From Pseudomonadota bacterium (GTDB taxonomy: Bacteria; Myxococcota_A; UBA9160; SZUA-336), in NCBI GenBank assembly GCA_003247575.1, contig QJZC01000011.1:87874-151873 (forward strand): a stretch of DNA of 64,000 bases, in the 5' to 3' direction. The position numbers were made by a program, and so were the translations under genes. Each line of letters begins with the position of its first letter. Positions within the stretch are counted from its first letter, which is position 1. Of the stretch, positions 1,228 through 25,328 are shown one piece after another. Under the pieces are notes generated by a model. That model saw nothing but the letters and a program-made list of their open reading frames with translations, made no database searches and was not told where the DNA came from.

Positions 1228-1354
1228 CGATTCCCCTTCCCGGTCGCGTCCCTCTCTGTCTTCAGGGTCTCCAAGTGGCTTGTGCTGGCCCCGGACCACG
1301 GCGAACGAGCGCGGCTACGCTGCTGGCCTCAGGGACACTCGCTAAGCTGACCTC

Positions 1355-1885
1355 ATGTCCAAGCTTCTGCTCAGCTTGATGCGTCACGCGAGTGCGCTCG
1401 TGGACTCCAAGGATCACGAGCGCAAGCTCAGCCCAGTCGGACATCAAGAGAGCCGTTCGGCCGGGCTCGAACTTGCCAAGGTAGGGCTGGATCGCGTGCT
1501 CTGCTCCACGGCTTTGCGGGCAGCCGAGACCTGCGAGGAGGTCTGCGGGCAGCTCGAGCACCAGCCGGCAATTGAATTCGAGCGAGGGCTCTACCTGGCC
1601 GAGCCGGACATCATCTTCGAACGCCTGAGTGAGCTTCCGCTGGGGGCGGAACACGTACTGGTCATCGCGCACAACCCCGGCGTGCAGCAGCTGGCCTGGG
1701 ACCTTGCGGCCGGTTCTAGCTTGCGGGCTCAGCTGCGGGCGGGAATGCCTCCCGCGACGCTCGTGCACTTCGAGGGCGAAGCTTCCGATTGGTCCGAGCT
1801 GCGTTCGACTCAGCTTCGGCCGCTCTGGCTCTGGTCGCCCGGCGCGGGCTCCCCGGTGCACGCGATGGAGTCGGAACGCGGCTGA
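1355..1885 (+). CDS. sixA: SixA-like phosphohistidine phosphatase (histidine phosphatase superfamily branch 1)
   Basis: 176 aa. Has the LMRHA catalytic RH motif at the N-terminus, then ...R.LS..G...LDRVLCSTALRAAET...VLVIAHNPG. Size and layout match SixA. Confidence 0.7.
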   Translation: MSKLLLSLMRHASALVDSKDHERKLSPVGHQESRSAGLELAKVGLDRVLCSTALRAAETCEEVCGQLEHQPAIEFERGLYLAEPDIIFERLSELPLGAEHVLVIAHNPGVQQLAWDLAAGSSLRAQLRAGMPPATLVHFEGEASDWSELRSTQLRPLWLWSPGAGSPVHAMESERG

Positions 1886-1919
1886 CCGCGCTTCCGCCCC
1901 AGCCGGCTCGGCTGCGCGT

Positions 1920-2309
1920 CTAAAGGCCGGAGCTACCGAGAATCTGATGGGTGATCGAGACCAGCTGGTCGCCGCCCATCGGTTTCTCCAGCACATCGAA
2001 GGCCAGGCCGTCGTTTGCCGCGCCCTCCAGCTCGCTCAGGAACTCGCGGTAGAACGCAGTCACGACGTAGATCGGAACGTCGATGCCCTGTTCGCGAATC
2101 GCCCGGAGCGTCTCGACGCCGTTGAGCCCTGGCATCTTCAGATCGAGGAAGATGAGGTCATAACGTTGTGAGGCGAGGCGGGCCAGGCCTGCTTCCCCAG
2201 ACTCGGCGTCGTGGACCGTATAAGGTTGTCCCTCGAAGGCAAGCTGAAACGACTTGCGCACTCCCGCATCATCGTCCACTACAAGTACCGACTTCCTGCT
2301 CATGAGCAT
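1920..2309 (-). CDS. Single-domain CheY-like response regulator
   Basis: 129 aa. VLVVDDD acidic pocket, phospho-acceptor in DLIFLDLKMPGLNG, VVTAF, and LEKP lysine. Confidence 0.9.
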   Translation of the reverse strand: MLMSRKSVLVVDDDAGVRKSFQLAFEGQPYTVHDAESGEAGLARLASQRYDLIFLDLKMPGLNGVETLRAIREQGIDVPIYVVTAFYREFLSELEGAANDGLAFDVLEKPMGGDQLVSITHQILGSSGL

Positions 2310-2348
2310 CTCTCCCTATGCGCACCCCTCGAACGGGTCTTGCGCACC

Positions 2349-2975
2349 TTACCAACGCACCTCTGCGGGATCCCACAGCCGTTCGATCCGAGCCTCGTCG
2401 ACGCCGACGAGTTGCTGGCGCGGTTCTGATCCCATGCGCACGAGCGTCGGAGTGGCGCGCACCTCGTCGAAGCGGGCGCGGTTCGGCTGCGTCAGGATGT
2501 CGATCACCTCGAGCTCGAACTGTCCTTGCATCGCGGAATCGAGCATCGTGCGGACTCGATGGGCGCACGACTGCGCATAGCGTCCCCGGCCCGTCAGATA
2601 CAGCTTGAAGAGCCGAGAGGGACGCTCCCAGATGACCGCGTCGACCAGCCAGCGGACGGTCTCGATCCGAACCGGTGGCGCCAGTACCTCGAACCAGATC
2701 GGAACGTCTGACGGGATCTCGTGATCCTGCGCAGGAACCACGTAGATGGGTGCGGTCCGTGCGACCGCTCTGAGAGCGTGAAGCGCCGAGGACAAATTGT
2801 CCCCGCATTCGGCGTAGGCGACGACGACCACGCCAGCTCCATGCTGGCCGATCTCATCGATGCCCTGCTCGATGGTGCCGCAGGAGCGGAGGGAAGTCTT
2901 CGCAGCTGTCAGGGCCTTCTCGAAGGTTTGGATCAGCTCGGAATCTTGGGCGATCAGAACGAGGTCTCGGTTCAC
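2349..2975 (-). CDS. Pseudo-receiver domain fused to a KaiB-fold domain
   Basis: C-terminal ~90 aa (about 2349-2618) aligns by eye with KaiB: FKLYLTG...FELEVIDILTQPNRARFDEVRATPTLVRM...PRQQLVGV. The N-terminal ~118 aa has a receiver-like beta/alpha pattern, but the phospho-acceptor position reads VVVAYAECGD with no Asp. The GTG start overlaps the kinase stop (GTGA at 2972-2975). Confidence 0.85.
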   Translation of the reverse strand: MNRDLVLIAQDSELIQTFEKALTAAKTSLRSCGTIEQGIDEIGQHGAGVVVVAYAECGDNLSSALHALRAVARTAPIYVVPAQDHEIPSDVPIWFEVLAPPVRIETVRWLVDAVIWERPSRLFKLYLTGRGRYAQSCAHRVRTMLDSAMQGQFELEVIDILTQPNRARFDEVRATPTLVRMGSEPRQQLVGVDEARIERLWDPAEVRW

Positions 2976-4513
2976 CTTGGCTCTCCCGACGGACTAGAGT
3001 GACCTAGGGGTAGTGTAACCCGGAATCGCGCGCCAAAGTCGGCAAGTGAGTTTCCCGTCAGGGTCCCGCCGTGAGCCCGCACGATTCCCTGGGAGATGGA
3101 CAGGCCGAGGCCGGTGCCCGACCCGACAGGTTTCGTCGTGAAGAATGGGTCGAAGATGCGATTCTCGGTAGTTGGATCGATACCGCCGCCATTGTCGGAG
3201 ACCGTGAGCTCCATCTGGGCACCGTCGGAGCGGAGCGCGATCGTCAGCTTTGGATCGCGGTCCTCCACGCTGCGCAACGAGTCCAGGGCATTCGAGACCA
3301 GGTTGACCACGACTTGCTCGATCCCGTCGGCGGATATGCACACTAGCGGGAGATCGGGATCGACCATCAGGTCGAGCGTCACCTCTTCGCGTCTCATTTG
3401 ATAGGAGAACAGGTTGCACACCCTGGAAACGATCTGGGCGAGATCCTGAGGACTCTCCTGTCCACTGAGCGAGGCACCGGTGTGCGAGAAGTCCAGCAGG
3501 CCGCGCACGATGCGCGCGCAGCGTGCAGCTTCTCGCTCGATGTCGTGCAAGATGGGCAAGCGCGCGTCACCGTCGTCGGTTCGCTTGGCACAGTATTGCG
3601 CGAAGGTGCCGATGCTCATGATCGGGTTGTTGAGTTCGTGCGCGACCCCGGCCACCGTGCGGCCCAGGGCTGTCATCTTCTCTGCATGGATCAGCTGGGC
3701 CTGCGAGGCCTCCAGCTCGGAGAGCGCATCCCGGAGCTTCGACTCGGCGAGCTTTCGAGAGCGCAAGTCGGATAGGATTCCCGTGAAATAGATCTCGCCG
3801 CGGTCCTTCACCTCGCTGACGGAGAGCTGAATGGGTATGCATGATCCACTGGCGCACTGAGCCAGTACCTCGCGACCACGGCCGATGATCCTGGGCTGTT
3901 GGGTTTCCAGGTAGCGGCGGACATAGGCATCGTGCGCTGCCGCGTGTGGCTCGGGCATGAGCATGGAGACGTGAGACCCGATCAGCTGTTCGCGCGTGTA
4001 TCCGAGCAGCGATTCGACCGCATCGTTTGCGGACAACATCGTTCCATCGGCACGCATCGTGATCACACCGTCGACCAAGGTCTGCAAAATCGACTCGAGG
4101 AGCGCGCTCGAGCGCGTGTCCTGCTCGGAGCGCTGCAGCGCAGCTCGTGCGGTGATCAGCGGCTCGACCAGCTGGTGCACGCGCTCGCGTTGCGCGGCTG
4201 TCAGAGGAGCTGGCTCGTGCCGCCAGAGGACCACCAGGAATGGCGTGTCCGGCGATGGCTCGATGGGGATCTGCGCCTCGTGGAGATGGCCCTCCTCTCG
4301 GAGAGCGGGATTGCCTCTATCGTCAGGTCTCTGTGGCGGGGTTAGTTCGCCCAAACTCCATCCCGTAGGGCTCCGCTGCGAGGCGTACGCGCACCGATAG
4401 GCGTTCGAGGCGGTCTCGTACTCCGCGAGCGCACAGGCGTCTGCGTCCAACAGCTCGCAGATCAACGCGGCGATCCGCTGACAGTCCTGCAGATGTCGTT
4501 TCGTGAGTTCCAA
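2972..4513 (-). CDS. PAS-domain sensor histidine kinase (cytoplasmic; GAF-like N-terminus)
   Basis: PAS ([34 protein letters not shown]), H-box [11 protein letters not shown], and N/G boxes (NLVSNALDS; DNGGGI; GSGTGLGLS). Track ORF reaches 4822, but residues 1-103 are Arg/Ser-rich and look non-coding. I prefer TTG at 4513 behind GGAGCGGAG. Confidence 0.85.
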
Positions 4514-5055
4514 TCGTCTCCGCTCCTGCCTGGCCCAGGGGGCACCGTACCTGCCCCGCCAGCATAGACAGCCCTGGCGCTTGCGAAAAGCCCCCAGGTG
4601 AGTGTCCCCCAGGAGACGGCTCGCGCTGGTGCTCCTGGGTCCGGCAAGCCTAGGCGGCAGCCGAATGGCAGCACGGGCATGAAGTCGGGGGCGAATTGCC
4701 ACGCCCCTTGCGGCTCTCCGGGATAGAGAGCACTTTGCCCCTCGCGTCGATTGCCAGGATCGATGCGCGTTCAGGTTCGAGGTCGACACCTGCGCTCTGG
4801 CGCTAACCGGTGTCTGCTTCATACGGAGTCACTCTGCAGGTGAGGTGGGCTCCTACTCCACTGAACGGACTGACCCGTCGATTCACGAGGGCTCGAGCGG
4901 CTTCGTAATGACCACTCGGTCGTTCCCTCATTCTGATTGTCCAGCCATACAACACGACTGGACCGATCGGCTCGTATCGCCGCCGATCGGTTCGTGCATG
5001 CGTACTCGACGAGCCCTCATTCGCGCTGACGAGTGAGAGCTCAGGAGGTTGACTC

Positions 5056-7551
5056 GTGCGTGTGAGAGCTCCTTCAGGTATCCGGAAGCAGGCGAGAGTG
5101 CGCGGAGCGTTCGTCGTCGCACTCTGCTCGGTCGCGTGCGTGATCAGTGGGCCCGCTGGCCTCACATTCGCTGACGAGCCCAGCAACCGTGTACGCGTGG
5201 AGGACGAGAAGACAGCGGCACCGGGGCGAGTTCGTCCTGCTCCATCCAACGAGGGATTGGAGTCGATCACGGTGACGGCTCGCAAGCGGCCCGAGAGCGT
5301 CGATCGGGTTCCCGTGTCGATCTCGGTCCTGACCGACCAGGATCTGGCGGAGCGAACGGTGCGTCGAACCGCAGATCTCGACGCTCCCAATCTCGAGATC
5401 GCAAACACGATTGGTTTCGCAAATAGTGCGCGCGTCGCGCTGCGAGGCGTGGGGCAGTTCGACGTCGCGCCCACGACGGACCCGGGAGTCGGCATCTACT
5501 TCGATGGAGTGTACCTGGCTCGGGCACAGTCGGGGCTGCTCGCGCTCGCAGACCTGCAGAGGGTAGAAGTGGTTCGCGGCCCGCAGGGAACGGTGTTCGG
5601 AAAGAACACCATCGGGGGCGCGATCAACTTGATCACCGCCAAGCCCGAGTTCGACTTCGGTGGAAGAGCCGTGTTGCGCTATGGAGATTTCGATGAGATC
5701 GAGACCCGTCTCGCGCTCAACGTTCCGCTTGTCTCCGAACGTGCTGCTGTGCGCCTGAGCCTCGCGACTGCGACCCACGATGGCTATCAGAAGAACGTCG
5801 GCGGCGGCGGTGACGGAGACGACGAGAAGCTTCTCAGTGGGCGGATTCAGCTGCGGCTCGTGCCGAGAGCAAACGTCGAAGTGCTCGTCGCGGCCGACCT
5901 CGCGATCGAGGACAAGGAGCCTCAGCCAGCCACATGCATTCCCGTGACGGGCATCGGAGCCCCATCGACGCTCCTCGGAACGATCGATTTTTTCAACAGT
6001 CTCTTCGTTCCTGGGGGGTCGCTGAATGCGCCCCGCTTCGCAGCGCAGTGTGCGCAACGGGCTCGGCACGAGGAGCGCCGACGCTTTCGTTCGGACATCC
6101 CATTCACGAAGGACGATCAGACGTCATTCGGCGGCTCGGTCACCATCCTTTGGGATCTCGACGACCGTAGCACGCTGACTTCGATCTCCTCGAGCCGGGG
6201 TTTTCGGACGCGGGCAGGGGTCGATCTGGATGGGACCGAGTTTCCGCTCACGGTGGCGACGAGCCCTGACTCACTCGAACAGGATCAGATGAGCCAGGAG
6301 TTCCAGTTTGCATCGAGTACTCTGAGTGGACGTCTGCGCTACCTGCTTGGCTTGTACGGTTTTCGTGAGAAGGTAGCCAACTCGTCGTTGGGGCCGGACG
6401 GACCCGGCGTGTCGATCGCGACGCTGAGCGATCCCTCCTCGATTCAGGGCTTCGAGCTGCGCCCCTTCGCGCTGGTGCGAAACAAGTTTCGCACGGGAAG
6501 TCTGAGCTACGCGGCGTTCGGTCAGGTGACCTTCGACGTCTCGCCCACGCTCGAGGCGACTGTAGGGTTGCGCTTCTCGCACGAGCGAAAGCGATTCTTT
6601 CGGCGGGGTGTCGTCACTCGCTCGGGGGTCTCGCTCTCCTTGTTCGATCCGGTCGCGGCCGCGAGCCTCGATGGCCTCGCCGCGGAGCTCGTTCCGGCTC
6701 CAGTCGGGACGCTGATCGCGAGTGTGGATCGTGCGAAGCGATTCAGCGACTTCACTCCTTCCGCGAGTCTCACCTATAGCTTGAGCGATGACCTGCTCGC
6801 CTACCTGAGCTTCAGCACCGGATTCAAGAGCGGGGGCTTCGATGGCCGCGAGGTCAACGATGCTCCCGAGGTCGATCCCGAGCACCTGACGACCTACGAG
6901 ATCGGCTTCAAGGGCGATGCCCTGGATGGGCGTCTGCGCTTCAGCGCGGCTGCCTTCTACAGCGTCTATCGCGACGTGCAGCTCACGGTAACGACTGGGA
7001 ACGTTGCAAACCCGACCGATGTGCTGAATGCCGGGAGAGCGATCATCCGCGGCGGAGAGGTGGAGCTCGCGGTGCTGCCTCTGGAAAACTTACGGCTCGT
7101 TGGCGCGCTCGGTGTGCTCAGTACGAAGTACGATCGGTTTTCCGATCGCATCGTGGATACGAGCGGGCCCGCGCCCGTCGTGATCCCGGTCGATCGCGAC
7201 AACCTCGACCTTCCCTTTTCGCCAAACTACACCTTGAGTCTGTCGGCCCTCTACTCGGTCCCGACTGAATGGGGGACCCTACGCATGGGTGCGGAGTGGC
7301 AGCACAAGGGCGCGCAGTCGCTCGACGTGCTCAATACGGAGCAGCTCAGGCAGGGAAAGCGCGGCGAGCTCAGTGTGCGCATCGGAGTTGCGTCGAGAGA
7401 CGAGCGGGTCGAAGTCTCGCTGTACGGGCGCAACCTGCTCGACCGGGACTATCAAGTGAGCGGTTTCGAGCAGACGTCTGCGAATGGCTTCGTAGGCCGC
7501 TTTCAGGGGCCTCCGCGTAGCTATGGGGTCGAGCTCCAGGTTCGCTTCTGA
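5056..7551 (+). CDS. TonB-dependent receptor (TBDR-1)
   Basis: 831 aa. GTG start 7 nt after AGGAGG, signal peptide, plug region (ITVTARKRPESVDRVPVSISVL...RVEVVRGPQGTVFGKNTIGGAINLI), a long beta-barrel, and C-terminal ...YGVELQVRF ending in Phe. Confidence 0.9.
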   Translation: MRVRAPSGIRKQARVRGAFVVALCSVACVISGPAGLTFADEPSNRVRVEDEKTAAPGRVRPAPSNEGLESITVTARKRPESVDRVPVSISVLTDQDLAERTVRRTADLDAPNLEIANTIGFANSARVALRGVGQFDVAPTTDPGVGIYFDGVYLARAQSGLLALADLQRVEVVRGPQGTVFGKNTIGGAINLITAKPEFDFGGRAVLRYGDFDEIETRLALNVPLVSERAAVRLSLATATHDGYQKNVGGGGDGDDEKLLSGRIQLRLVPRANVEVLVAADLAIEDKEPQPATCIPVTGIGAPSTLLGTIDFFNSLFVPGGSLNAPRFAAQCAQRARHEERRRFRSDIPFTKDDQTSFGGSVTILWDLDDRSTLTSISSSRGFRTRAGVDLDGTEFPLTVATSPDSLEQDQMSQEFQFASSTLSGRLRYLLGLYGFREKVANSSLGPDGPGVSIATLSDPSSIQGFELRPFALVRNKFRTGSLSYAAFGQVTFDVSPTLEATVGLRFSHERKRFFRRGVVTRSGVSLSLFDPVAAASLDGLAAELVPAPVGTLIASVDRAKRFSDFTPSASLTYSLSDDLLAYLSFSTGFKSGGFDGREVNDAPEVDPEHLTTYEIGFKGDALDGRLRFSAAAFYSVYRDVQLTVTTGNVANPTDVLNAGRAIIRGGEVELAVLPLENLRLVGALGVLSTKYDRFSDRIVDTSGPAPVVIPVDRDNLDLPFSPNYTLSLSALYSVPTEWGTLRMGAEWQHKGAQSLDVLNTEQLRQGKRGELSVRIGVASRDERVEVSLYGRNLLDRDYQVSGFEQTSANGFVGRFQGPPRSYGVELQVRF

Positions 7552-7675
7552 GCGAGATCGATCGTCGGACCTGTCGTGCCCCGCGCTGATGGGCGGTGGG
7601 GTACCACCGCGAGAGATCCGAGCGAGCCGAGGAATGCAGGTCGTCTAGACACGTACGGGTGTATCGCGTCCTCGC

Positions 7676-7692
7676 GGGACAGATAGTGTCCC
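7676..7692. promoter_or_regulatory. Perfect inverted repeat GGGACA-N5-TGTCCC, candidate operator upstream of the TetR gene
   Basis: GGGACAGATAGTGTCCC lies in the 300-nt gap between TBDR-1 and the TetR gene, about 160 nt upstream of the TetR start. Size and symmetry are typical of TetR-family operators. No binding evidence. Confidence 0.3.
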
Positions 7693-7852
7693 AATTCCTC
7701 CAGGACACCGGGCCAATGCGCAAGCTTGCTCTAGTGGCCCGCCCGCGGCCTGCCGCGCAATTGTCAGCAACTTGGTCATGTGATCAACTCGATTGTGAGA
7801 GATCGGGTGGGGAATTGATCGCAGATGCTGAATACCGAAGCCATATCGTGAC

Positions 7853-8689
7853 GTGATGAAGAGTGCAGAGGTCGAGACCAAGAACAATAAGCGAGCGGCC
7901 GCGACGTGCGCATTTTGCGGGGAGCCGATCGAGGTACCGCCCGGTCCGGGCCGCCGTCCGCGCTACTGTCGTCCCTCTCACCGACAGCGTGCCTATGAGG
8001 AACGACGACTGAATCGCGCGCGCCAAGCGGGCATGGTGCGGTCGACTCGCAGCGCGGCCCCCGACCTTCCACCCGTCGCGAAGTCGGGGGATCCGAAGCG
8101 TCGCATTGCGGCGGCTGCGCGCGCCCTGCTCGCGGAGTGCGGGCTCGAGGGGACCACGATGCGCGCGATCGCCGACCGTGCAGGGGTTGCCTACGGCACC
8201 GTGAGCTACCACTGCGGCACCAAGGAGGAGCTCCTGATTCAGGTGCTCCAGACCGAGGGCTGCAAGCTGCAGCGAGATGCCGAACGTACCTGGGAGATCC
8301 CAGATCTGAGCTCTCGACGGAGATCGCTGACCGAGGAGATGCGCACGCGCGTCGAACGCCAACCCGAGGTGTTCAAGCTGCGCTTCGAGATGTTTGCCCT
8401 GGCGCTGCGCAATGAGCCCTACCGAAGCGAGGTGGCGAAGTTGCTCCAGAGTGCGAGGGCATCCGTCGGCGAGTCACTCGTAAAAGCTGGATTTCGGGAC
8501 GAGGACAGTCTGCGCCTCGCGCCGCTGGTTCTCGCAGCCATTGATGGACTTGCGCTCCAGGCGCTCGTCGATCCGGACTTCGATCACTCGGCAGCGCACG
8601 GTCTACTGACTCTCCTCTTGGGGCAATTCCGTCGTGTACGGGAGAGTGCAACGGACCGCGCGGGACGCACGGGCGAGCAGGACGCCTAG
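7853..8689 (+). CDS. TetR-family transcriptional regulator with N-terminal zinc-ribbon-like extension
   Basis: TetR HTH: RIAAAARALLAECGLEGTTMRAIADRAGVAYGTVSYHCGTKEELL. The N-terminal 60 aa contain CAFC-x16-CRPSH followed by RQRAYEERR. Confidence 0.85.
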   Translation: MMKSAEVETKNNKRAAATCAFCGEPIEVPPGPGRRPRYCRPSHRQRAYEERRLNRARQAGMVRSTRSAAPDLPPVAKSGDPKRRIAAAARALLAECGLEGTTMRAIADRAGVAYGTVSYHCGTKEELLIQVLQTEGCKLQRDAERTWEIPDLSSRRRSLTEEMRTRVERQPEVFKLRFEMFALALRNEPYRSEVAKLLQSARASVGESLVKAGFRDEDSLRLAPLVLAAIDGLALQALVDPDFDHSAAHGLLTLLLGQFRRVRESATDRAGRTGEQDA

Positions 8690-8758
8690 CGGCAGAGAAA
8701 GCGCTCGCCGCATGGCGAGCGCCCGTCTTCTCGGTTGCTTGCGAGGTCTGGAGGGACC

Positions 8759-11194
8759 ATGAGTCGAGGAAAGATGTTCTACGTCCGTGTAGCGAGCGCA
8801 TTCGCGCTCGCTGCGAGTCTCTGGGCGGGCGCCTTGGGTGTCCCTCGCGACAGCGCCAATCACGGGCCGCGCCGTCAGCTGAGCCCAGCCGCGCAGGTGG
8901 CGACCCTCACGGGTGCGCAGGAGCTGCGTCGCGCGTATCGCGAATGGGTGGCGGTCCACGAGCGACGCGGAGGGGATCGCCGCATCCAGTTGCAGCTGGG
9001 TCGTTCGGGACAGGTCGATCACGCCCCGGGACGAGAGGGGAATCCCCTCGGTGTCGCAGAAGTGGATCTGGTCGAAGGAGCCTTCGAGATCGAGGTTCGA
9101 GATCTCGACGCGGGGTTCGAATACACCGCCTGGGTGCTCGACAATCAGCCGGGACCGGGCAACAGCTTGCTACCGGATCGGTCGGATCGCTACCTCGAGT
9201 TGGGGTCGTTGGCCGAGACTGCCGGTGTGTGGCGGCTCCAGCGCTCGCTCGGATCCGAGCCATTCTCCGACCTGAGCGTTGATGCGCTCTTGATCGCGCG
9301 CGCAGGTGCACATCCTGCAGACGGAGTCGTGATGTCCGGTGCGCCCGATCTGTTCCAGCGGATCTACTCGGCCACGCGTAGCGAGGCAAGCCTGGCTGCG
9401 AGCGAATACGTCGAGATCGCTGCCTGGGCAGACGAGCGCCGCGATGCACCAGGCAGCTGGTTCGGAATCGCGACCGCGCGGGCAGCGCGAAAGAATCCCC
9501 CACAAGGGATCGTCGTAGATGCGGACGTGCTGATCGACGAGCTCGTGGCACTCGGTGCGGATGTCTTCATCAATGAGGACTTCGAGGGCAATGGGCGCAC
9601 ATGCGAGACGTGCCACGACTTTCTCAACAACAATACGATCGACCCGCCCTTCATTGCTCGGCTGCCGGACAACGATCCCCTCTTCATCGCGGAACAGATT
9701 CCTGGGCTTGCAAGCGATGGTACGAACTTGGGCGCCCTCGACGTTCCGGAGATCCTGCGGGCGACGGCGCTGATCGGCATCTCGGAGGACGGAGTCGACA
9801 AGCCGAGTGTCAATCGATCGGTCCCGCACCTGAAGGGGCTGCGGCAAACGTTCGGACCGCCGGTGGGCGTCTTCCGCGACTTCTCCGATGCGAACCCTGC
9901 GCCGTTTCCCCTTCCTCCGGCGGGCTCCGATCCTGCGGTTCGTATGGGTCTGACGCTCGACAACGCGAGCGTGCCACCCTTCGATCGCGGTGGCTTTGGT
10001 GGCGACCTGAGTTTCGAGCCCGAGCTCGGTCTCTTCGGGCGCATCCGCGATGCCGTGCCAGGGGCAGTCTTCCTGCTCTTCACGAAGACCCTGGATCGGC
10101 AGATCGGGGTCGATTTTCGCCTTCCCACGGATTTGGAGGCCGACGCGGTTACCGCGTTCTACTTCACGCTCGGGCGGAGCTCCGATCTCGAGCTTCCGAT
10201 TCCGCTGTCCGATCCCATCGCGGCTCGCGGTCAGCTTACCTTTATGAACGACGGCGGCGCGACGAATGGACGTGCGCCCGGACAAGCTCAGGTAATCCCA
10301 CTGCTGGATGAGTTCGGAAATCCGATTGGGGCCGGCAAGTGCAACGTCTGCCACTTCAATGCGGGTGCTCTCGCGAACCCTGTGGCCTTCAGAGACGTGG
10401 AGCGTGTATTCGCGGAGCAGCTCGGAGTTGCCCCCGATCAGGCGCCCCGCATCGGCCTAGCCAACATGAACTTCGAGACGGGAGCGGAGCGCCTCACGTC
10501 GCAACCAGCCGACATCGTCGCCGGATCGAAGAAAGCGCGCGATGCGGGCTTCGGCCGGGTCCCACAGGGAACCTCGCTCGGGCCAGACGCGGCGCCCTGC
10601 CGCGGCGGACTCGGGGGCTTCGGGGGTACGGTCGTGCTGGACTTTCCTGGGGCGGATCCACCGATTCGGGCGGGCGACTGCAGCGAGGCGTTCAGCACTC
10701 AGCCTCTGATCGAGGCGGCGGACACGCCTCCGTTCTTTCACAACAATGCGGTCACGACCATCGAGACGGCCGTGTCCTTCTACAACAGCGATGCTTTCAA
10801 CGGTTCGCAGGGCGCGCGCATTCTCGGGGCGATCACTGGCACGAACGGAATTCGCCTCGAGGCGACAGACGTGCAGGCGATTGCGGGCTTCTTGCGTGCG
10901 ATCAATGCGCTCGACAACATCGCCGCGGCGACCTCGCTGTTGCAGGCCACCCAGGGCCAGAGTGGAGCGGTGTTCCGACAGCTCGTCGACGGTGCACTCG
11001 CCGAGATCGTCGATGCGATCGACATTCTCGAGGGTGCCTTCATCAACCCTGCCGCGTCCCGACGCCTTCGCGATGCGCGCGTCGCGCTCGAGGGGGTACG
11101 ATCAAGTGCGGAGAGCGCAGTGGCGGGCTCCACGGCTCTACAGGTCGCCCTGGCTGCACTGTTGGACGCACGCGAGGAGATCTCACCGAGCTGA
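8759..11194 (+). CDS. Secreted di-haem cytochrome c, CCP/MauG-like core with novel N-terminal domain (paralogue A)
   Basis: Signal peptide. CxxCH at 9602-9616 (CETCH) and 10340-10354 (CNVCH). CCP-like distal segment: FSTQPLIEAADTPPFFHNNAVTTIETAVSFYNS...VQAIAGFLRAINALDNI. ATG at 8759 follows GGAGGG. Paralogous to 11270-13714 and 56737-58767. Confidence 0.8.
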   Translation: MSRGKMFYVRVASAFALAASLWAGALGVPRDSANHGPRRQLSPAAQVATLTGAQELRRAYREWVAVHERRGGDRRIQLQLGRSGQVDHAPGREGNPLGVAEVDLVEGAFEIEVRDLDAGFEYTAWVLDNQPGPGNSLLPDRSDRYLELGSLAETAGVWRLQRSLGSEPFSDLSVDALLIARAGAHPADGVVMSGAPDLFQRIYSATRSEASLAASEYVEIAAWADERRDAPGSWFGIATARAARKNPPQGIVVDADVLIDELVALGADVFINEDFEGNGRTCETCHDFLNNNTIDPPFIARLPDNDPLFIAEQIPGLASDGTNLGALDVPEILRATALIGISEDGVDKPSVNRSVPHLKGLRQTFGPPVGVFRDFSDANPAPFPLPPAGSDPAVRMGLTLDNASVPPFDRGGFGGDLSFEPELGLFGRIRDAVPGAVFLLFTKTLDRQIGVDFRLPTDLEADAVTAFYFTLGRSSDLELPIPLSDPIAARGQLTFMNDGGATNGRAPGQAQVIPLLDEFGNPIGAGKCNVCHFNAGALANPVAFRDVERVFAEQLGVAPDQAPRIGLANMNFETGAERLTSQPADIVAGSKKARDAGFGRVPQGTSLGPDAAPCRGGLGGFGGTVVLDFPGADPPIRAGDCSEAFSTQPLIEAADTPPFFHNNAVTTIETAVSFYNSDAFNGSQGARILGAITGTNGIRLEATDVQAIAGFLRAINALDNIAAATSLLQATQGQSGAVFRQLVDGALAEIVDAIDILEGAFINPAASRRLRDARVALEGVRSSAESAVAGSTALQVALAALLDAREEISPS

Positions 11195-11269
11195 CCTTCG
11201 ATCCTTGCCTTGCTCGCGAGGTCGAGGAACTCGGAGGCTCCGGTGCAGTGTGCTGAAATGGAGGGTCGC

Positions 11270-13714
11270 ATGAGACGACTGCGAATGGTTGCTAGGGTCG
11301 GAGTCCTGTCTGCCGGATTGCTCGCGTTCGGCGGGGGGGGTGTGTGGATCGCGCGCGACTCCGCCGCGCCCGTGCCGAGCGACGTGAGGGCCGTTGCGGC
11401 AGGAATGGTCGGTGCACCCCGGTTGCGTGCGGCCTACGCGAACTGGTCGCGAGCGCACGAGGCGCGTGGTGGAGATCGTCGAGTCGAGATCGTGCTCGGA
11501 CGATCCGATCCGCACACGCTTGCGGATAGGGTACAGCTGGGAGTCCTCCGACTCGACCTGGTCGACGGAGTCGTCGAGGCGACTCTCCCTGGACCGCTGG
11601 ACGAGGCTGATGGCTACGTCCTGTGGCTGGTAGACAATCCGACTTCCCCAGACAATGGGCTGAGCGCAGATGTGGGCGACCGCTTCCTGGAGGTTGGGCG
11701 TTTCGAGCCCCGAGGAACCGGCTACGCGCTGCAGGCGGAACTCGGGACACGGGCGTTCGAGCGATTTCAGGTCGATGGCGCTCTCGTGGTTCCGGCGGAC
11801 GGCGACCCGACTGGCCGTGTATCGATGGGGGGGGCTCCCGACCTGTTTCAACGAATCTACACGTCGGTGCGGACTCCCGAGCTGTTCGCCGAGAGTGATT
11901 ATGCCGATCTGCTCAGCGAAGATGCGACCAGCTTCGGGATCGGCGTGCGCCCAGCGATGGCTGCCCGGAAGCCGAATCCGGATCGGACGGTCGTCGACGT
12001 CGATGTCCTGCTCGATCGCTTGATCGCACGCGGTGCAGACCTGTTCATCAACGAGACCTTCGATGGCAACGGTCGGACCTGCTCGACGTGTCACAGCCTT
12101 GCGAACAATCTGACGTTGAATCCCGGCTTCATCGCCGGCCTGTCCGACCAGGATCCACTCTTCATTACAGAGCAGATCCCCGAACTCGCGAGCGACGGAG
12201 TCAAGCCCGGAGCTCTCGACGTGCCGGAGATCCTACGAGCCACGGGCCTTGTTGGAATCCCAGGGCCCGACACCGTCGCGAACCCGGCGATCAATCGGTC
12301 GGTGACGCATCTTCGGGGGCTGCGAGCGACGGTGGTGCCGCCGGCACCGGTGGTCGCACCGTTCGGTCCCGAGAACCCGGCGCCCTTCCCTCTCCCCGAC
12401 GGACCGCCGTCCGGCACTGTCATGGGGATCACGGTAGACAACGCGACGGTGCCGCCGTTCGAGCGCGCCGGGTTCGGCGGTGACCTGGCGTTCGTGCCCC
12501 AGAATGGCCGCTTCGGACGAGCGCGAGACGCGGTCCCAGGCGCGACCGCGCTGCTGCTCACGCGGTCTCTCGCGCGCGTGCCCGGTGTGGACTTCCGCAT
12601 GCCAACCGACTTGGAGACCGATGCGGTCGCGGCCTTCTTCTTCTCGCTCGGGCGGAGTGCTGACATCGAGCTTCCGATCCCGCTGTCGGATCCGATCGCG
12701 CGCCGCGGTCAGGCCGTCTTCATGAACGACGGAGGCGCACTGAATGGAAATCAACCGGGAAATGCATCGGTGGTTCCGCAAGTAGACGACTTCGGAAATC
12801 GGATTGGCGCCGGAAAGTGCAACATCTGCCACTTCAACGCAGGTGCACTTACGAATCCAGTCGTGTTCGCATCGGTGGAGCCCGCCTTTGCAAGCATGCT
12901 CGGGATTCCGCGCGATCAATTTCCCTCGCTCGGGCTGCGAAACATGAACTTCGAGACTGGCGTCGAGCGACTCTCCTCGCAGCCGGCCAATGTAGTTGCG
13001 GCAGACAAGAAAGGTCGAGATGCAGGCTTCGGCGTGGTTCCACATACACCGGGTGGAAGCGCGAGTTCATCGGGCTGTGCCAATGGGAGGGGCGGATTCG
13101 GCACCCTTGTAATGGTTCCCTTCCCAGGGGCGGATCCGCCGGACGTGGTCGGAGACTGTATCGAGGCATTCAATACTCAGCCGTTGGTGGAAGTCGCCGA
13201 TACTCCCCCCTTCTTCCACAACAACGCCGTCAGTACGGTCGAGATGGCGGTCGAGTTCTACAATACCGATGCCTTCAATCAGTCTGCGGCTGCACGACTG
13301 CTGGGTGCGGTCACCGGGACGAATGGGATTCGGCTCGAGGCGACGGAGGTGCAGGCGATTGCCTCGTTCCTGCGCGCGATCAATGCGCTCGACAATATTC
13401 GAGAGGCGCGTGAGAACCTGCTCGCAGCGTTTCGAGTGGGCTCTCGACCGGACGTGGAGCAGCAGCTCATCGCCAATGCAACGATGCAGATTGACGATGC
13501 GATCCAGGTTCTGTCGGCTGCAGGCGTGAACACTCGGGCCGTCGATCGCCTGCTCGATGTTCGTGCTGGGCTGCAGCGCGCAGGAGTCGCCGATGAGCGA
13601 CGAGGCGTCTTCTCGCGATTCCGACGACTCGATCGAAGGCCGAGATTCGTAGAGGTCGTGCGCGCTCTGGCCGGACTGGATCGGGCTCGCCAGAGCATCT
13701 CCCCGAGTCGCTGA
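11270..13714 (+). CDS. Secreted di-haem cytochrome c, CCP/MauG-like core (paralogue B, tandem to A)
   Basis: CxxCH at 12080-12094 (CSTCH) and 12818-12832 (CNICH). Collinear with paralogue A along its whole length: DLFINETFDGNGRTC, NRSVTHLRGL, NMNFETGVERLSSQPA, ADTPPFFHNNAVSTVEMAVEFYNT. ATG at 11270 follows GGAGGG. Confidence 0.8.
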   Translation: MRRLRMVARVGVLSAGLLAFGGGGVWIARDSAAPVPSDVRAVAAGMVGAPRLRAAYANWSRAHEARGGDRRVEIVLGRSDPHTLADRVQLGVLRLDLVDGVVEATLPGPLDEADGYVLWLVDNPTSPDNGLSADVGDRFLEVGRFEPRGTGYALQAELGTRAFERFQVDGALVVPADGDPTGRVSMGGAPDLFQRIYTSVRTPELFAESDYADLLSEDATSFGIGVRPAMAARKPNPDRTVVDVDVLLDRLIARGADLFINETFDGNGRTCSTCHSLANNLTLNPGFIAGLSDQDPLFITEQIPELASDGVKPGALDVPEILRATGLVGIPGPDTVANPAINRSVTHLRGLRATVVPPAPVVAPFGPENPAPFPLPDGPPSGTVMGITVDNATVPPFERAGFGGDLAFVPQNGRFGRARDAVPGATALLLTRSLARVPGVDFRMPTDLETDAVAAFFFSLGRSADIELPIPLSDPIARRGQAVFMNDGGALNGNQPGNASVVPQVDDFGNRIGAGKCNICHFNAGALTNPVVFASVEPAFASMLGIPRDQFPSLGLRNMNFETGVERLSSQPANVVAADKKGRDAGFGVVPHTPGGSASSSGCANGRGGFGTLVMVPFPGADPPDVVGDCIEAFNTQPLVEVADTPPFFHNNAVSTVEMAVEFYNTDAFNQSAAARLLGAVTGTNGIRLEATEVQAIASFLRAINALDNIREARENLLAAFRVGSRPDVEQQLIANATMQIDDAIQVLSAAGVNTRAVDRLLDVRAGLQRAGVADERRGVFSRFRRLDRRPRFVEVVRALAGLDRARQSISPSR

Positions 13715-19269: not shown

Positions 19270-21987
19270 GTGCGGCGGTGGAACTTCGGATGGATTGGTG
19301 GGTTGGCACTCAGCGTGGCTTGGGTCGGTACGTCGCTGGCGGATGAAGCAAGCTCGGAGGCGGTCGAGGCCGCTCAGGTAGATTCTACGGCGGCTGCGGA
19401 TGATGCGGAGCCAGAGCGCGATGTCCGCGAGGTGGAGCGGCTCCCAGAGGATTCGATCGAAGAGATTCGGATCACGGGGCGTCGCCGCGACGAGACGATC
19501 CAGCAAGCGCCGGTCTCGGTCACCGCATTCGATGGTCTCGACTTGGAGGATCTCGAGGTCACCGACGTCAAAGAGCTCGCACGTTTCGTACCGAATCTCC
19601 AGCTCGATGAAGCCGCTGCGACGCAGAATGCGGCTCGCGTATTCCTGCGGGGCATCGGGAACGACGACCCGATCATCACCGACGAAGGCGGGGTCGGCAT
19701 TACGGTAGACGACGTCTTCCTGCCGCGCGCAGCCGGTACTCTCCTATCCATCTCCGACGTCGAGCGCATCGAGGTGCTCGCGGGTCCCCAGGCCACCCTC
19801 TACGGAAAGAACACGGTGGGCGGGCTGGTCCGCTACCTGACCAAGAAGCCGGAGTGGGACTTCAACGGGCGGGCTTCGCTGCGCGTCGGGAATTTCGATC
19901 AGGTGACGAGCCGCTTCATGCTGAACGTCCCACTGATCTCGGATCGGCTCGCGATGCGGCTGAATGTCGGCGCCAACTACAACGAAGGGCTCTTCGACAA
20001 CAAGGGCCCCGGACGAGATCGGACACTGCAGTCCCGCGGGCAGCAGGCTCAAGTCCAGCTGCGTCTTCAAGCCAGCGAGACCACCGAGGTCTTGCTCAAG
20101 GGCTACTACACGAACAGCCCCAATTCGGGCTTCGTGGCAAAGTGCAAGCTGACGGCTGGACTCGCGCTCAACAGGGTCGACGGGCGTCTCTTCGGAACCA
20201 ACGCGACCGGACCCGGGACACGCGGTGACTTCGCCGAGGAGTGTGCACGCGATCGCGCGCTCGATTCCGACGAGTTCAGGAGTGATGCCTCGACGGAAGA
20301 CGAGCTGCAGACGACGGGGACCTCGCTGCACGTGAGCTACGAGTCCTCGCCGTCGTTCGCCTTCCGATCCATCACGGCCTGGAATCGCAACGAGACCAGC
20401 AGCCGCTTCGACTTCGATGCGACCCGGCTCCCCATCTCGCAATCCCTGGACACGGACAAGAACGAGTCGATCCAGGACTCCATAAGCCAAGAGTTCAACT
20501 TCTCTGGTCTGGCGATGGACGGTCGCCTGAACTGGGTCGGTGGGTTCTTCGGGCTCGTCGAGAAGAACCAGGACAGCGAGCGACAGACCTCGGACCTGCC
20601 GACCTTCCTCGACCCCGAGGAATTCCGTTTCGCCGACCTCGCGAACGCGCGCGTAGTTGGGTCGGACGCTGCGATCGGGGCGATCGGAACGACCGACATC
20701 GGACTGAGGGCGCTCGAACCGGGCCTGCTCGAGGCCACCGGCGCGATCGAGGTGGCGCCCGGAATCTTCCTACCTGGAGCACCGCTGGCCTTCGAGGAGC
20801 TCCCCCTGCGTCTAACGAATGGGGCGGGCGACTGCATTGCCGGAACGGACCAGACCGTTCGGTTCCTCGCCGACTTCAGCGATCTGGTGATGGACTCGCC
20901 TGTGGACCTGAGTGCAGTCCCCGTGACGGCTCCGAGTTGTCGGCGCGAGTTCTCGAGCATTCAAACGGAGGGGTTCCTCAAGTCGAACGTGACGAGCTAT
21001 GCGGCCTATGGCCAGGTGGGCTTCGACATCGCGCCCGGATTGACGTTCGAGGCTGGAGCGCGTTACACGCACGAGCGCAAGCGCGTGGCCCGTTTCGAGC
21101 GCGTCCTCGACTCCAGCATTCCTCTGGTGCGCGAGCCGGCGACGATTGCGCGCGGCTTCGCGACCAGCACCTTCGAGTTTTCCGAGCGCTTCGGGCGCTT
21201 CTCGCCTTCCGCCAGCCTGCGCTACCAGCCGACCGAGGATCTCAATCTGTATGCGTTGTGGGGGCGCGGCTTCAAGAGTGGCGGCTTCAATGGGCGTGGA
21301 GTCGGCGATGCGAGCGAGCTGATCAGCTACGGGCCCGAGAAGGTCACCAGCTACGAGGTCGGCTTCAAGTCGCGCTGGTTCCAGCGTAGACTGACCCTCA
21401 ATGGCTCGCTGTTCAGCACGAACTACGACGACATTCAGCTGGTGAACATCCAGATCAATCAGACCTCGGGACGCATCATCGTTGTGACCGACAACGCCGG
21501 CAAGGCGCGCATCAACGGAGCCGAGCTGAATCTCGTCGCCTTGCCGCCGATCGATGGTCTGACGATTCGCGCCAATGGCGGCATCACCGTGGGGCGCTAC
21601 ACGAAGGTCAAGCCAAGCCGCGATGGACTGCTGCAGCTGGTCAATCCGAACGGTCGCCTGACGGGAACGCCAACTTACACGGGCAGTGTTTCGGTGACGT
21701 ACCGCGTTCCGCTCGGAAGCCTCGGGGATCTGACCAGCACGTTCAGCTGGTCGCATCAGGGGAAGAAGGCGAACAATCCCCAGAACACAGAGTTCTCGAA
21801 CAAGGTGGGCCTCCTGAGTGGCCGTGTCGCCTTGGAGCTGGCGGATGGAAAGACGCGAATCGCGGCCTTCGGAAGCAATATCCTGGATCGCGAGTACGTA
21901 GCCAACTCACTGGATATCGCGCGGCAGACGCTGCAATTCTTCGGTCCCCCCCGGCAGTTCGGAATCGAGCTCATCCGGGAGTTCTGA
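19270..21987 (+). CDS. TonB-dependent receptor (TBDR-2)
   Basis: 905 aa. GTG start after GAGGAGA, signal peptide ending SLADEA, plug (IRITGRRRDETIQQAPVSVTAF...RIEVLAGPQATLYGKNTVGGLVRYLT), and terminal ...FGIELIREF. Confidence 0.9.
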   Translation: MRRWNFGWIGGLALSVAWVGTSLADEASSEAVEAAQVDSTAAADDAEPERDVREVERLPEDSIEEIRITGRRRDETIQQAPVSVTAFDGLDLEDLEVTDVKELARFVPNLQLDEAAATQNAARVFLRGIGNDDPIITDEGGVGITVDDVFLPRAAGTLLSISDVERIEVLAGPQATLYGKNTVGGLVRYLTKKPEWDFNGRASLRVGNFDQVTSRFMLNVPLISDRLAMRLNVGANYNEGLFDNKGPGRDRTLQSRGQQAQVQLRLQASETTEVLLKGYYTNSPNSGFVAKCKLTAGLALNRVDGRLFGTNATGPGTRGDFAEECARDRALDSDEFRSDASTEDELQTTGTSLHVSYESSPSFAFRSITAWNRNETSSRFDFDATRLPISQSLDTDKNESIQDSISQEFNFSGLAMDGRLNWVGGFFGLVEKNQDSERQTSDLPTFLDPEEFRFADLANARVVGSDAAIGAIGTTDIGLRALEPGLLEATGAIEVAPGIFLPGAPLAFEELPLRLTNGAGDCIAGTDQTVRFLADFSDLVMDSPVDLSAVPVTAPSCRREFSSIQTEGFLKSNVTSYAAYGQVGFDIAPGLTFEAGARYTHERKRVARFERVLDSSIPLVREPATIARGFATSTFEFSERFGRFSPSASLRYQPTEDLNLYALWGRGFKSGGFNGRGVGDASELISYGPEKVTSYEVGFKSRWFQRRLTLNGSLFSTNYDDIQLVNIQINQTSGRIIVVTDNAGKARINGAELNLVALPPIDGLTIRANGGITVGRYTKVKPSRDGLLQLVNPNGRLTGTPTYTGSVSVTYRVPLGSLGDLTSTFSWSHQGKKANNPQNTEFSNKVGLLSGRVALELADGKTRIAAFGSNILDREYVANSLDIARQTLQFFGPPRQFGIELIREF

Positions 21988-25261: not shown

Positions 25262-25328
25262 TCGAAGCGGTGCCTGGCTGGAGGCCGAGGAGCTCCGCCG
25301 CCTCAACCTCGGCACTCTGAGGTATGCG

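Follow-up and report, generated by a model that had tools for sequence, protein, structure and literature searches.

We analysed a 64,000-nucleotide stretch (hereafter the window) of contig QJZC01000011.1 from a Pseudomonadota bacterium assembly (GCA_003247575.1), concentrating on a gene for a TetR-family regulator (7853-8689, + strand; TetR_N E 5e-13, TetR_C_31 E 2e-8) and the two adjacent genes that follow it, which encode the paralogous di-haem proteins A (8759-11194, +; 811 aa) and B (11270-13714, +; 814 aa). We propose, with moderate confidence, that TetR-A-B is a conserved unit of exported di-haem enzymes belonging to the branch with a His/Tyr-ligated haem, in which the A/B pair oxidises a hydrophobic small molecule. 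As judged from sequence comparisons, A and B appear to belong to a sizeable clade of MauG-like enzymes that carries extra domains and is missed by current models, and within this clade they seem to be part of a rare derived subclade. A first-pass annotation of the window, made from the sequence alone, had placed the two proteins in a recurrent module centred on TonB-dependent receptors (TBDRs). Our comparison of loci indicates instead that the receptor encoded upstream (TBDR-1) is a neighbour in this genome and probably not a conserved component of TetR-A-B.

Placement and architecture of A and B

The open reading frame (ORF) listing and the Pfam scans agreed with the first-pass annotation on the gene order, i.e. 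the genes of TBDR-1, TetR, A and B all lie on the + strand, with gaps of 69 and 75 nt on either side of A (~70 nt had been given). GGAGGG-type ribosome-binding sites precede the ATG codons at 8759 and 11270, as well as the one at 56737 that opens the gene of a third di-haem protein, D (56737-58767, +; 676 aa), which supports the start codons previously assigned to all three. The paralogues A and B share the same architecture and are 54% identical over 828 columns, spanning their full length, and D, which has the canonical form of this family, shares 36% identity with A (E 2e-98). A motif search located exactly two CxxCH motifs in each paralogue (nt 9602 and 10340 in A, 12080 and 12818 in B), and both proteins carry the segment F-x-T-Q-P-L-(I/V)-E-x-A-D-T-P-P-F-F-H-N-N-A-V-x-T-(I/V)-E-x-A-V-x-F-Y-N, just as had been described. 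The N-termini begin with a basic n-region and continue with ~17 hydrophobic residues; judged by eye, they look like Sec signal peptides, as already proposed for A and B, and Sec export fits the need for export in the attachment of c-type haem.

A profile of 57 family members and a separate core-only profile were searched against the sequences of solved structures. The former matched MauG (E 4e-8), MbnH (6E1C; 3.6e-7) and BthA (6NX0; 7e-6), with the classical Met/His peroxidases at 0.007 or worse, and the latter matched MbnH (2e-8), MauG (3.5e-7) and BthA (3e-6); across the profile searches the classical peroxidases gave E values of 0.005-0.2. The first haem motif of A, CETCH (C282, C285, H286; 9602-9616, +), which lies in the context GNGRTCxTCH and is invariant in 142/142 sequences, aligned with the first CxxCH of MauG and MbnH, the MauG alignment including the G-A-x-L-F that precedes it. 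The second motif, CNVCH (C528, C531, H532; 10340-10354, +), is likewise invariant and aligned with the second CxxCH of MauG, MbnH and BthA, the order of the two motifs being the same.

The region from His661 to Tyr675 of A (10739-10783, +) is of particular importance for the assignment. Its PPFFH(661)NN motif conforms to the P-(Y/F)-(F/M)-H-(D/N)-(G/N) pattern that the superfamily conserves after the second haem, and it aligned with GPYMHNG of MauG and APYMHDG of MbnH, which bears out the parallel with cytochrome c peroxidase (CCP)/MauG proteins drawn earlier for this segment. The tyrosine of FY(675)N (13259-13261, +, in B) aligned exactly with Tyr294 in the F-Y294-N of MauG, a ligand of the 6-coordinate haem, and with the tyrosine of “IDIYSE” in MbnH. 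The spacing between His661 (142/142) and Tyr675 (137/142) is 14 residues, the same as in MauG. Tyr675 is predicted to be the sixth ligand of the second haem, and the haem at the first CxxCH is presumed to be the 5-coordinate, reactive one. Tyr-His ligation of the 6-coordinate haem is found in MauG and BthA, where it is tied to the bis-Fe(IV) state and sets these enzymes apart from the H2O2-detoxifying peroxidases (PMC6405878); formation of bis-Fe(IV) upon addition of H2O2 is accompanied by a near-infrared charge-resonance band (PMC6405878, PMC11951088).

The comparison of AlphaFold models by Foldseek, suggested as a check in the first-pass annotation, gave a divided outcome. For the model of a 448-aa core-only homologue (predicted local distance difference test, pLDDT, 76), the top eight matches all belonged to the superfamily (MbnH, four bacterial peroxidases and hydrazine-synthase gamma; prob 0.92-1.0, TM score 0.41-0.51, E 2e-3 to 0.1), with MbnH as the best fold match (E 2.4e-3, prob 1.0, 378 aligned columns). 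The full-length model of A, on the other hand, had no CCP or MauG protein among its top 50 matches. Membership of A, B and D in the bacterial di-haem peroxidase/MauG superfamily, which had been claimed from the motifs, is supported mainly by the profiles, the fold comparison being in agreement but of modest weight. Their position in the MauG/MbnH/BthA (His/Tyr-haem) branch, and not with the H2O2-detoxifying peroxidases, is supported by the far worse scores of the classical enzymes and by the tyrosine at the ligand position, in keeping with the earlier view that simple H2O2 detoxification is not their function.

Existing models do not capture this relationship. PF03150 (gathering threshold 25.6 bits) gave no match to A or B even at E<=10, and reached 19.7 bits with D and 22.8 bits with another di-haem protein of the window, C (described below). 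The MbnH model TIGR04039 (cut-off 362.85 bits) gave 10.9 bits with B, 22.1 with D and no match with A, and the MauG model TIGR03791 (cut-off 443.85 bits) gave 12.9 bits with D and none with A or B. The only traces in the model scans of A and B were sub-threshold MbnH- and MauG-like matches across the PFFHNN segment, and the suggestion that their architecture is uncharacterised holds, in that no Pfam or NCBIfam model covers either protein. RoxA-type membership was also considered and ruled out: the models of RoxA and RoxB, NF040606 and PF21419 did not match A or B, and no RoxA structure appeared among the PDB matches of the 57-member or core-only profiles.

The AlphaFold model of A (pLDDT 83; predicted template modelling score, pTM, 0.87) reproduces the three-part build recognised in the first-pass annotation, with an N-terminal domain of ~200 aa, a core with insertions (modelled at low confidence) and a helical tail of ~110 aa. 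The N-terminal domain (residues ~43-230; 8885-9448, +; pLDDT >90) comprises a long helix, an immunoglobulin (Ig)/superoxide dismutase (SOD)-like beta-sandwich and short helices. Foldseek searches of the PDB with full-length A gave weak Cu,Zn-SOD-like matches to this sandwich (E ~0.1, TM score ~0.4-0.5). SOD-like metal binding was ruled out, because the positions conserved in the family alignment (W63, G71, G98, G107, W125, P139, D143, G149, L160, D175 and R201) include no His, Cys or Met. The C-terminal four-helix bundle (residues 702-808; 10862-11182, +; helices at pLDDT 94-98) carries the motif FLRxxNALxNI; F711, L712, R713, N716, N720 and D752 are kept in ~98% of sequences, and the bundle is also present in short, core-only family members.

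The family is both large and widespread. An exhaustive search of 1.84 billion cluster representatives retrieved 1191 clusters of relatives at E<=1e-3, 782 at 1e-10 and 306 at 1e-30, compared with just 58 relatives from a word-indexed search. In species-representative genomes, at least 401 loci proved to encode a relative; they originate from Acidobacteriota, Methylococcales, Marinobacterium, Myxococcota, Burkholderiales, Planctomycetota and others. The members fall into length classes: core-only lipoproteins of ~450-530 aa, in which the C-terminal bundle is already present; a middle class of ~660-750 aa with the N-terminal domain, resembling D; and the longest class, of ~810-890 aa, resembling A and B. 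Tandem pairs are rare (3 of 84 sources, namely the window and 83 loci). One locus of a Thermoanaerobaculia metagenome-assembled genome (L006, 9389-13282) holds a tandem duplication of two adjacent canonical members.

The A/B subclade and the TetR-A-B unit

Residue conservation was assessed in 142 aligned family sequences. Invariant or nearly invariant positions comprise the haem cysteines and histidines, Arg353, His357 (138/142), His661, Tyr675, Trp413 within GWSGDG (132/142) and the pair Gln439-His440 (132/142). In A, B and the proteins P0002, P0003, P0005 and P0006, the tryptophan is replaced by Phe413 (9995-9997, +, in A) and Gln-His by Leu/Thr439-Leu440 (Leu439-Leu440 in A, 10073-10078, +, situated in a confidently modelled helix, 429-440). 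These proteins also share the changes Asn342 to Ser/Gly, Phe346 to Val, Gly417 to Leu and Phe432 to Ala. Phe413 is confined to this group, and the loss of Gln-His has occurred independently in four other lineages; D retains Trp, Gln-His and Tyr and, like all other sequences in the residue comparison, follows the consensus. The group containing A and B appears to be a rare derived subclade, to which just 2 of the 150 best listed cluster representatives could be assigned.

The spacing between Trp413 and His440 is 22 residues, and the distance from Trp to the catalytic Glu is 20 in both the CCP of P. aeruginosa and MauG. Motif and spacing suggest that Trp413 is the inter-haem bridge, equivalent to Trp93 of MauG, and that Gln-His faces the reactive haem within its distal pocket; by the same spacing, the catalytic Glu of MauG would correspond to the family's Gln-His and to the Leu-Leu of A and B. 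We read the subclade as having a re-tooled, putatively hydrophobic pocket at the reactive haem. The phenylalanine of A and B has a parallel in BthA, which contains Ser in place of the canonical bridging Trp (PMC6405878).

The closest relative locus (L001), found in the Joint Genome Institute (JGI) metagenome 3300027987, has the gene order TetR (65% identity), A' (P0002, the ortholog of A; 72%) and B' (P0003, the ortholog of B; 74.5%), with the stop codon of TetR overlapping the start of A' by 4 nt. The pairing of A with A' and of B with B' means that the duplication is older than the split of the two organisms, and the retention of TetR next to both genes identifies TetR-A-B as a conserved unit. 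No TBDR gene lies within 10 kb in L001. Another subclade member (P0006; L002) is encoded by a single, unpaired gene, accompanied by neither TetR nor a TBDR.

The TetR protein has an N-terminal extension of ~80 aa (CxxC...YCRPSHRQRAYEERR, conserved; CAFCGEPIEV...GRRPRYCRPSHRQRAYEERR, window 7853-8100), whose motif is zinc-ribbon-like (CxxC...C...H). The extension is conserved in the L001 protein and in the DNA 5' of its called start (L001, ~9150-9300), which indicates that the L001 TetR gene call is probably too short. Scans of the window for sigma-70 promoters and terminators and a search for TetR operator palindromes gave nothing informative. In the window, the genes around A and B encode TetR, a TBDR and a PilY1-like protein.

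Two further observations concern the surroundings of these genes. In L001, two STAND-type Ser/Thr kinases are encoded immediately 5' of TetR-A'-B' (1259-8952). Moreover, two members that lack Gln-His, P0340 (L169, 5907-9832) and P0006 of the A/B subclade (L002, 13554-20816), are located beside flavin-dependent monooxygenase-like or FAD-oxidase genes, although this association is anecdotal.

Possible substrates, partners and the role of TonB-dependent receptors

The replacement of signature residues by hydrophobic ones, the conserved TetR, the maintenance of the paralogue pair and the flavin-monooxygenase-like neighbours of the two Gln-His-less members together make a small hydrophobic substrate the most likely one for A and B. 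In the mechanism that we envisage, H2O2 (or O2) would react at the N-terminal, 5-coordinate haem, and the His532/Tyr675 haem would store the second oxidising equivalent as a bis-Fe(IV)-type species, to be used for the oxidation of a bound substrate and not for the removal of peroxide. The molecule oxidised by the pair would most likely be the TetR ligand itself, and A and B may act in consecutive steps, as PA2077 and PA2078 do on oleate.

The latter enzymes (FadCcp, oleate-diol synthase) are tandem, exported di-haem paralogues, 43% identical, which carry out consecutive steps on a hydrophobic substrate (PMC4496055). They provide a precedent for a tandem di-haem pair acting sequentially, and hydrophobic haem pockets are known in members of the oxygenase type (PMC4496055). 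RoxA has such a pocket at its active haem, and both RoxA and FadCcp are enlarged proteins (620-680 aa) built from a CCP core with large insertions (PMC4496055). The resemblance does not extend to the second haem, which is bis-His in RoxA and FadCcp and predicted to have a tyrosine ligand in A and B.

Several points weigh against our proposal. Concerning the placement of A and B, no Pfam or NCBIfam model is over threshold on either protein, CCP and MauG are missing from the top 50 Foldseek matches of full-length A, and the consensus of the mid-core segment has no sequence-detectable similarity to solved structures. The assignment of Trp413 and Leu439-Leu440 to the haem pocket draws on motif resemblance and residue spacing only, and with Trp and Gln-His gone, catalysis itself may equally have been lost. 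The case for a small molecule is circumstantial, being made from TetR, the conservation of the pair and two anecdotal flavin-monooxygenase neighbours, and the small secreted neighbours seen elsewhere suggest that the family in general acts on proteins. Finally, the mechanism outlined above is derived from sequence and analogy.

Alternatively, A and B might be protein-maturation enzymes of the MauG/MbnH type, which would use long-range hole transfer from bis-Fe(IV) to modify side chains of a partner (conversion of Trp to kynurenine, or a cross-link). The sandwich or the helical bundle would then dock the partner, which would be encoded elsewhere, or A and B would act on each other. MbnH and MauG are the closest solved relatives of the family and the Tyr ligand position is conserved; MbnH introduces kynurenine into a copper-binding partner, as SACCP and CorB probably do into theirs, and in MbnP this residue serves as a copper ligand (PMC11951088). 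We nevertheless regard this possibility as unlikely for A and B, because no small secreted partner gene occurs beside them in the window, L001 or L002, and because the Trp and Gln-His kept in canonical members have been lost, which argues against unchanged MauG-like chemistry. The regulator also speaks against it, since TetR-type repressors are more typical of small-molecule-responsive operons.

MbnH, an enzyme of methanobactin and copper-homeostasis operons that works with MbnP, is the best solved match by both the core-only profile (2e-8) and fold, and it shares with A and B the export, the order of the two CxxCH motifs and a P-x-x-H motif with an aligned Tyr. It differs in its length (~390 aa), in lacking the N-terminal beta-sandwich, the core insertions and the C-terminal four-helix bundle, and in a mid-core without sequence similarity; moreover, no MbnP-like partner gene adjoins A/B, as far as can be told from scans that did not include a dedicated MbnP model search. 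MauG (3L4M and others), which acts in tryptophan tryptophylquinone (TTQ) biosynthesis, differs in that the window has neither mau genes nor, according to domain scans, the methylamine dehydrogenase substrate genes, and in that A and B have extra domains at both ends. BthA of Burkholderia, which forms a stable bis-Fe(IV) state, has no known substrate and has a Tyr-His-ligated 6-coordinate haem, was matched at E 3e-6 to 7e-6. It belongs to another sequence cluster, which is detected by PF03150, is limited to Burkholderia and is devoid of the sandwich and helical-bundle domains.

For canonical members (D, and MCA0444 of Methylococcus capsulatus, discussed below) the situation is different, as small secreted proteins are conserved beside the family gene in several lineages and speak for protein substrates. 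Clustering of the neighbours of 83 loci showed that the partners of the family are lineage-specific. A secreted protein of ~136 aa with a weak DUF5666 match is encoded directly 3' of 12 core-only members (including those of L055, L057, L059, L060, L062, L066, L074, L078, L079 and L082), frequently with a stop/start overlap between the two genes, and is a candidate conserved partner or substrate of these members. In methanotroph loci, secreted proteins of ~230 aa are found beside the family gene (L075, 7680-8381 and 9063-9746; L083, 1339-2025; also L037 and L069). Three of them gave sub-threshold matches to the copper-site region of CorA (PF18252, E 0.007-0.016), and in one (L075, 7680-8381) a W-T-H motif resembles the Kyn-x-His site known from CorA and MopE; by sequence, none of these neighbours matched CorA or MopE in the PDB. 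No CorA-like gene is located near A, B or D.

A third type of neighbour, an ankyrin-repeat protein, is encoded directly 5' and on the same strand in 13 acidobacterial loci (including L010, L012-L015, L018, L019, L022, L036, L044 and L068). In several of these, the ankyrin gene is preceded by genes for an AMP-binding enzyme, an NAD-binding oxidoreductase and a divergent CarboxypepD_reg-type TBDR-like outer-membrane protein.

The only family member with any experimental data, which are limited to omics, is MCA0444 (Q60BM2) of M. capsulatus Bath, a canonical form of ~690 aa similar to D. Its membership is evident from the family profile (fam.hmm; E 2e-218 on the copy in L087), and the representative of its 90% cluster (P0200) is 49% identical to the methanotroph member of L075. 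Larsen and Karlsen, who listed it under the name “MauG family protein”, found it 2.7-fold induced when cells were limited for copper and detected it in the surface and outer-membrane fractions (PMC4831470). It forms part of the copper-responding cluster CRC1 (MCA0421-0447), together with TonB-family genes and the receptor MCA0440 (PMC4831470). The gene order in L087 is MCA0446 and MCA0445, encoding small surface proteins, then MCA0444, followed on the opposite strand by ExbD, ExbB, TonB and a TBDR (MCA0440-0443). The two small secreted proteins upstream of P0200, which add to the case for protein maturation elsewhere in the family, have no equivalents beside A and B, and the TBDR is unrelated to those of the window. 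MCA0444 is a gene distinct from SACCP (MCA2590) and CorB. Identity of the family with SACCP/CorB was considered, but since its M. capsulatus member is MCA0444 and not MCA2590, and the faintly CorA-like neighbours lack a PDB match to CorA or MopE, nothing is claimed in this respect.

The proposal made in the first-pass annotation was that a TBDR and the di-haem proteins form an import/redox module: the receptor would import a metal chelate or organic substrate, to be oxidised by the periplasmic enzyme, in the manner of MbnT with MbnH/MbnP. MbnH is indeed often encoded near TonB-dependent transporters (PMC3621798). In the window, all three TBDRs lie within two genes of a di-haem gene: TBDR-1 (5056-7551, +; Plug E 6e-13, TonB_dep_Rec_b-barrel E 4e-35), TBDR-2, immediately 5' of C (19270-21987, +; Plug E 1e-15, barrel E 8e-37), and TBDR-3 (58870-61359, -; Plug E 4e-18, barrel E 5e-47). 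They are paralogues, TBDR-1 sharing 33-35% identity with the other two (33% over 780 aa with TBDR-3), and TBDR-1 matched only generic siderophore-receptor subfamily models, below cut-off. When the positions of five di-haem and three TBDR genes were permuted among the ~36 genes of the window, the observed closeness had a P of ~0.06-0.10. The adjacency in the window is real but statistically not compelling.

Data from other genomes give the proposal little encouragement, and we consider such a module quite unlikely. The first-pass annotation had made its case depend on conserved adjacency among homologues, and this is not what was found: of the 82 family loci, 6 have a TBDR-like ORF at a distance of up to 5 kb and 12 at up to 10 kb, with six each in the 0-5 kb and 5-10 kb bands and hence no near/far gradient, and at a density (14 per 1.2 Mb) that is ordinary for TBDR-rich phyla. 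The nearest A/B relatives have no TBDR within 10 kb, even though L001 keeps TetR, and the three neighbourhoods of C-family genes (L084-L086), one of which contains a 76%-identical relative, have none either. Conversely, when the search started from the nearest TBDR-1 relatives, none of 80 metagenomic loci encoded a di-haem protein of this family or a C-like or RoxA-like protein. The TBDRs found beside family members in different organisms are related to one another only at a generic level, D and TBDR-3 are convergent, and domain scans of the window revealed no siderophore, chalkophore or metal-homeostasis genes near by. As a conserved module, the idea is wrong or at best unproven; the TBDR pairing is mostly peculiar to this genome. 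A link between TBDRs and family members in some lineages is possible. The best argument for transporter coupling is the MCA0444 locus, beside ExbD-ExbB-TonB-TBDR in a cluster responsive to copper limitation, which is a parallel in one lineage; in addition, a TBDR-like gene lies directly downstream (70-311 nt) of the family gene in L007 and L008, whose proteins are 45% identical to D, and five Pyrinomonadaceae-type loci have a TBDR-like outer-membrane protein ~5 kb upstream.

A protein of yet another type, different from A-D, was noted immediately 5' of a TBDR-1 relative in L094 (1738-6282). Its 733 aa combine a Vgb-lyase/SGL-type beta-propeller with a cytochrome c region at the C-terminus (two CxxCH), and it thus represents another propeller-plus-haem gene beside a TBDR.

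The above elements can also be combined in a broader scheme, to which we attach a similarly low probability. The family would be an exported, MauG-like class acting in envelope metal acquisition, by oxidising either small secreted partners (to generate kynurenine-type metal ligands) or imported ligands, and it would be wired to TonB under copper limitation in some lineages. A and B would then be a derived pair whose reactive-haem pocket became hydrophobic and which, within the His/Tyr branch, independently acquired RoxA/FadCcp-like oxygenase chemistry on a lipid-like substrate, sensed by TetR and possibly imported by TBDR-1.

The least probable explanation, that A and B have degenerated catalytically and serve only in electron transfer or as structural subunits, or else are ordinary periplasmic H2O2-detoxifying peroxidases, could invoke the changes at Trp413, Gln439-His440 and further near-invariant positions (comparable losses are seen in a few other lineages) or the label “cytochrome c peroxidase” given to some members by the JGI, but it is very unlikely, because the orthologue pairs remain 72% and 74.5% identical with all haem ligands, His661 and Tyr675 intact, indicating purifying selection on the haem centres, while the classical peroxidases are Met-His ligated, score far below MauG and MbnH, and have as features neither the extra domains of 200 and 110 aa nor control by TetR.

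Other genes of the window and significance of the family

The count of five di-haem proteins and three TBDRs given in the first-pass annotation is correct. The claim that the A/B architecture recurs beside TBDR-3 stands in so far as D resembles A over its whole architecture; the two genes are not co-directional, however, since D and TBDR-3 converge with a gap of 102 nt and hence form no operon. The closest relatives of D are acidobacterial proteins with 45% identity.

Protein C (22298-25261, +) combines a YVTN/lactonase-type beta-propeller with a di-haem domain that has two CxxCH motifs and a sub-threshold CCP_MauG match; it also gives weak matches to hydrazine-synthase beta models. It had been regarded as a variant of the A/B architecture, which we rejected because C has no detectable sequence similarity to A and represents a different family, with at least 6756 homologues and apparently uncharacterised. 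Two C-family paralogues are placed convergently in L084. The fifth di-haem protein (42683-44464, -) matches NF040606 (“di-heme cytochrome c peroxidase”, 530 bits) as well as the RoxA and RoxB models, and its C-terminal cytochrome domain is RoxA-like (PF21419, E 1e-15). It is thus related to the rubber oxygenases and not to A and B, and it has no adjoining TBDR in the window.

Two other genes of the window deserve mention. A large STAND-type Ser/Thr protein kinase (25137-29243, +; Pkinase + AAA_16) adjoins C, its longest ORF overlapping the 3' end of C by ~125 nt. The gene at 36252-37544 (-) encodes a strong bacterial homologue of the MATCAP family of microtubule-associated tyrosine carboxypeptidases (PF08014, E 7.5e-119).

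To our knowledge, MauG, MbnH and BthA are the only His/Tyr di-haem enzymes studied that reach bis-Fe(IV) for long-range oxidations, and each new His/Tyr clade that we know of has so far yielded new chemistry (TTQ, kynurenine copper ligands). The present analysis delimits a further clade, which is missed by domain libraries, has two extra conserved domains and its own Trp and Gln-His signature, and is associated with partners that vary by lineage. It also removes the tempting but unsupported generalisation that these di-haem proteins are accessories of TonB transporters. With D the window offers a canonical member of the clade, and with A and B a rare derived pair; the lineages with A/B-like proteins can be considered a natural “experiment” in which the signature of the clade has been swapped for hydrophobic residues.

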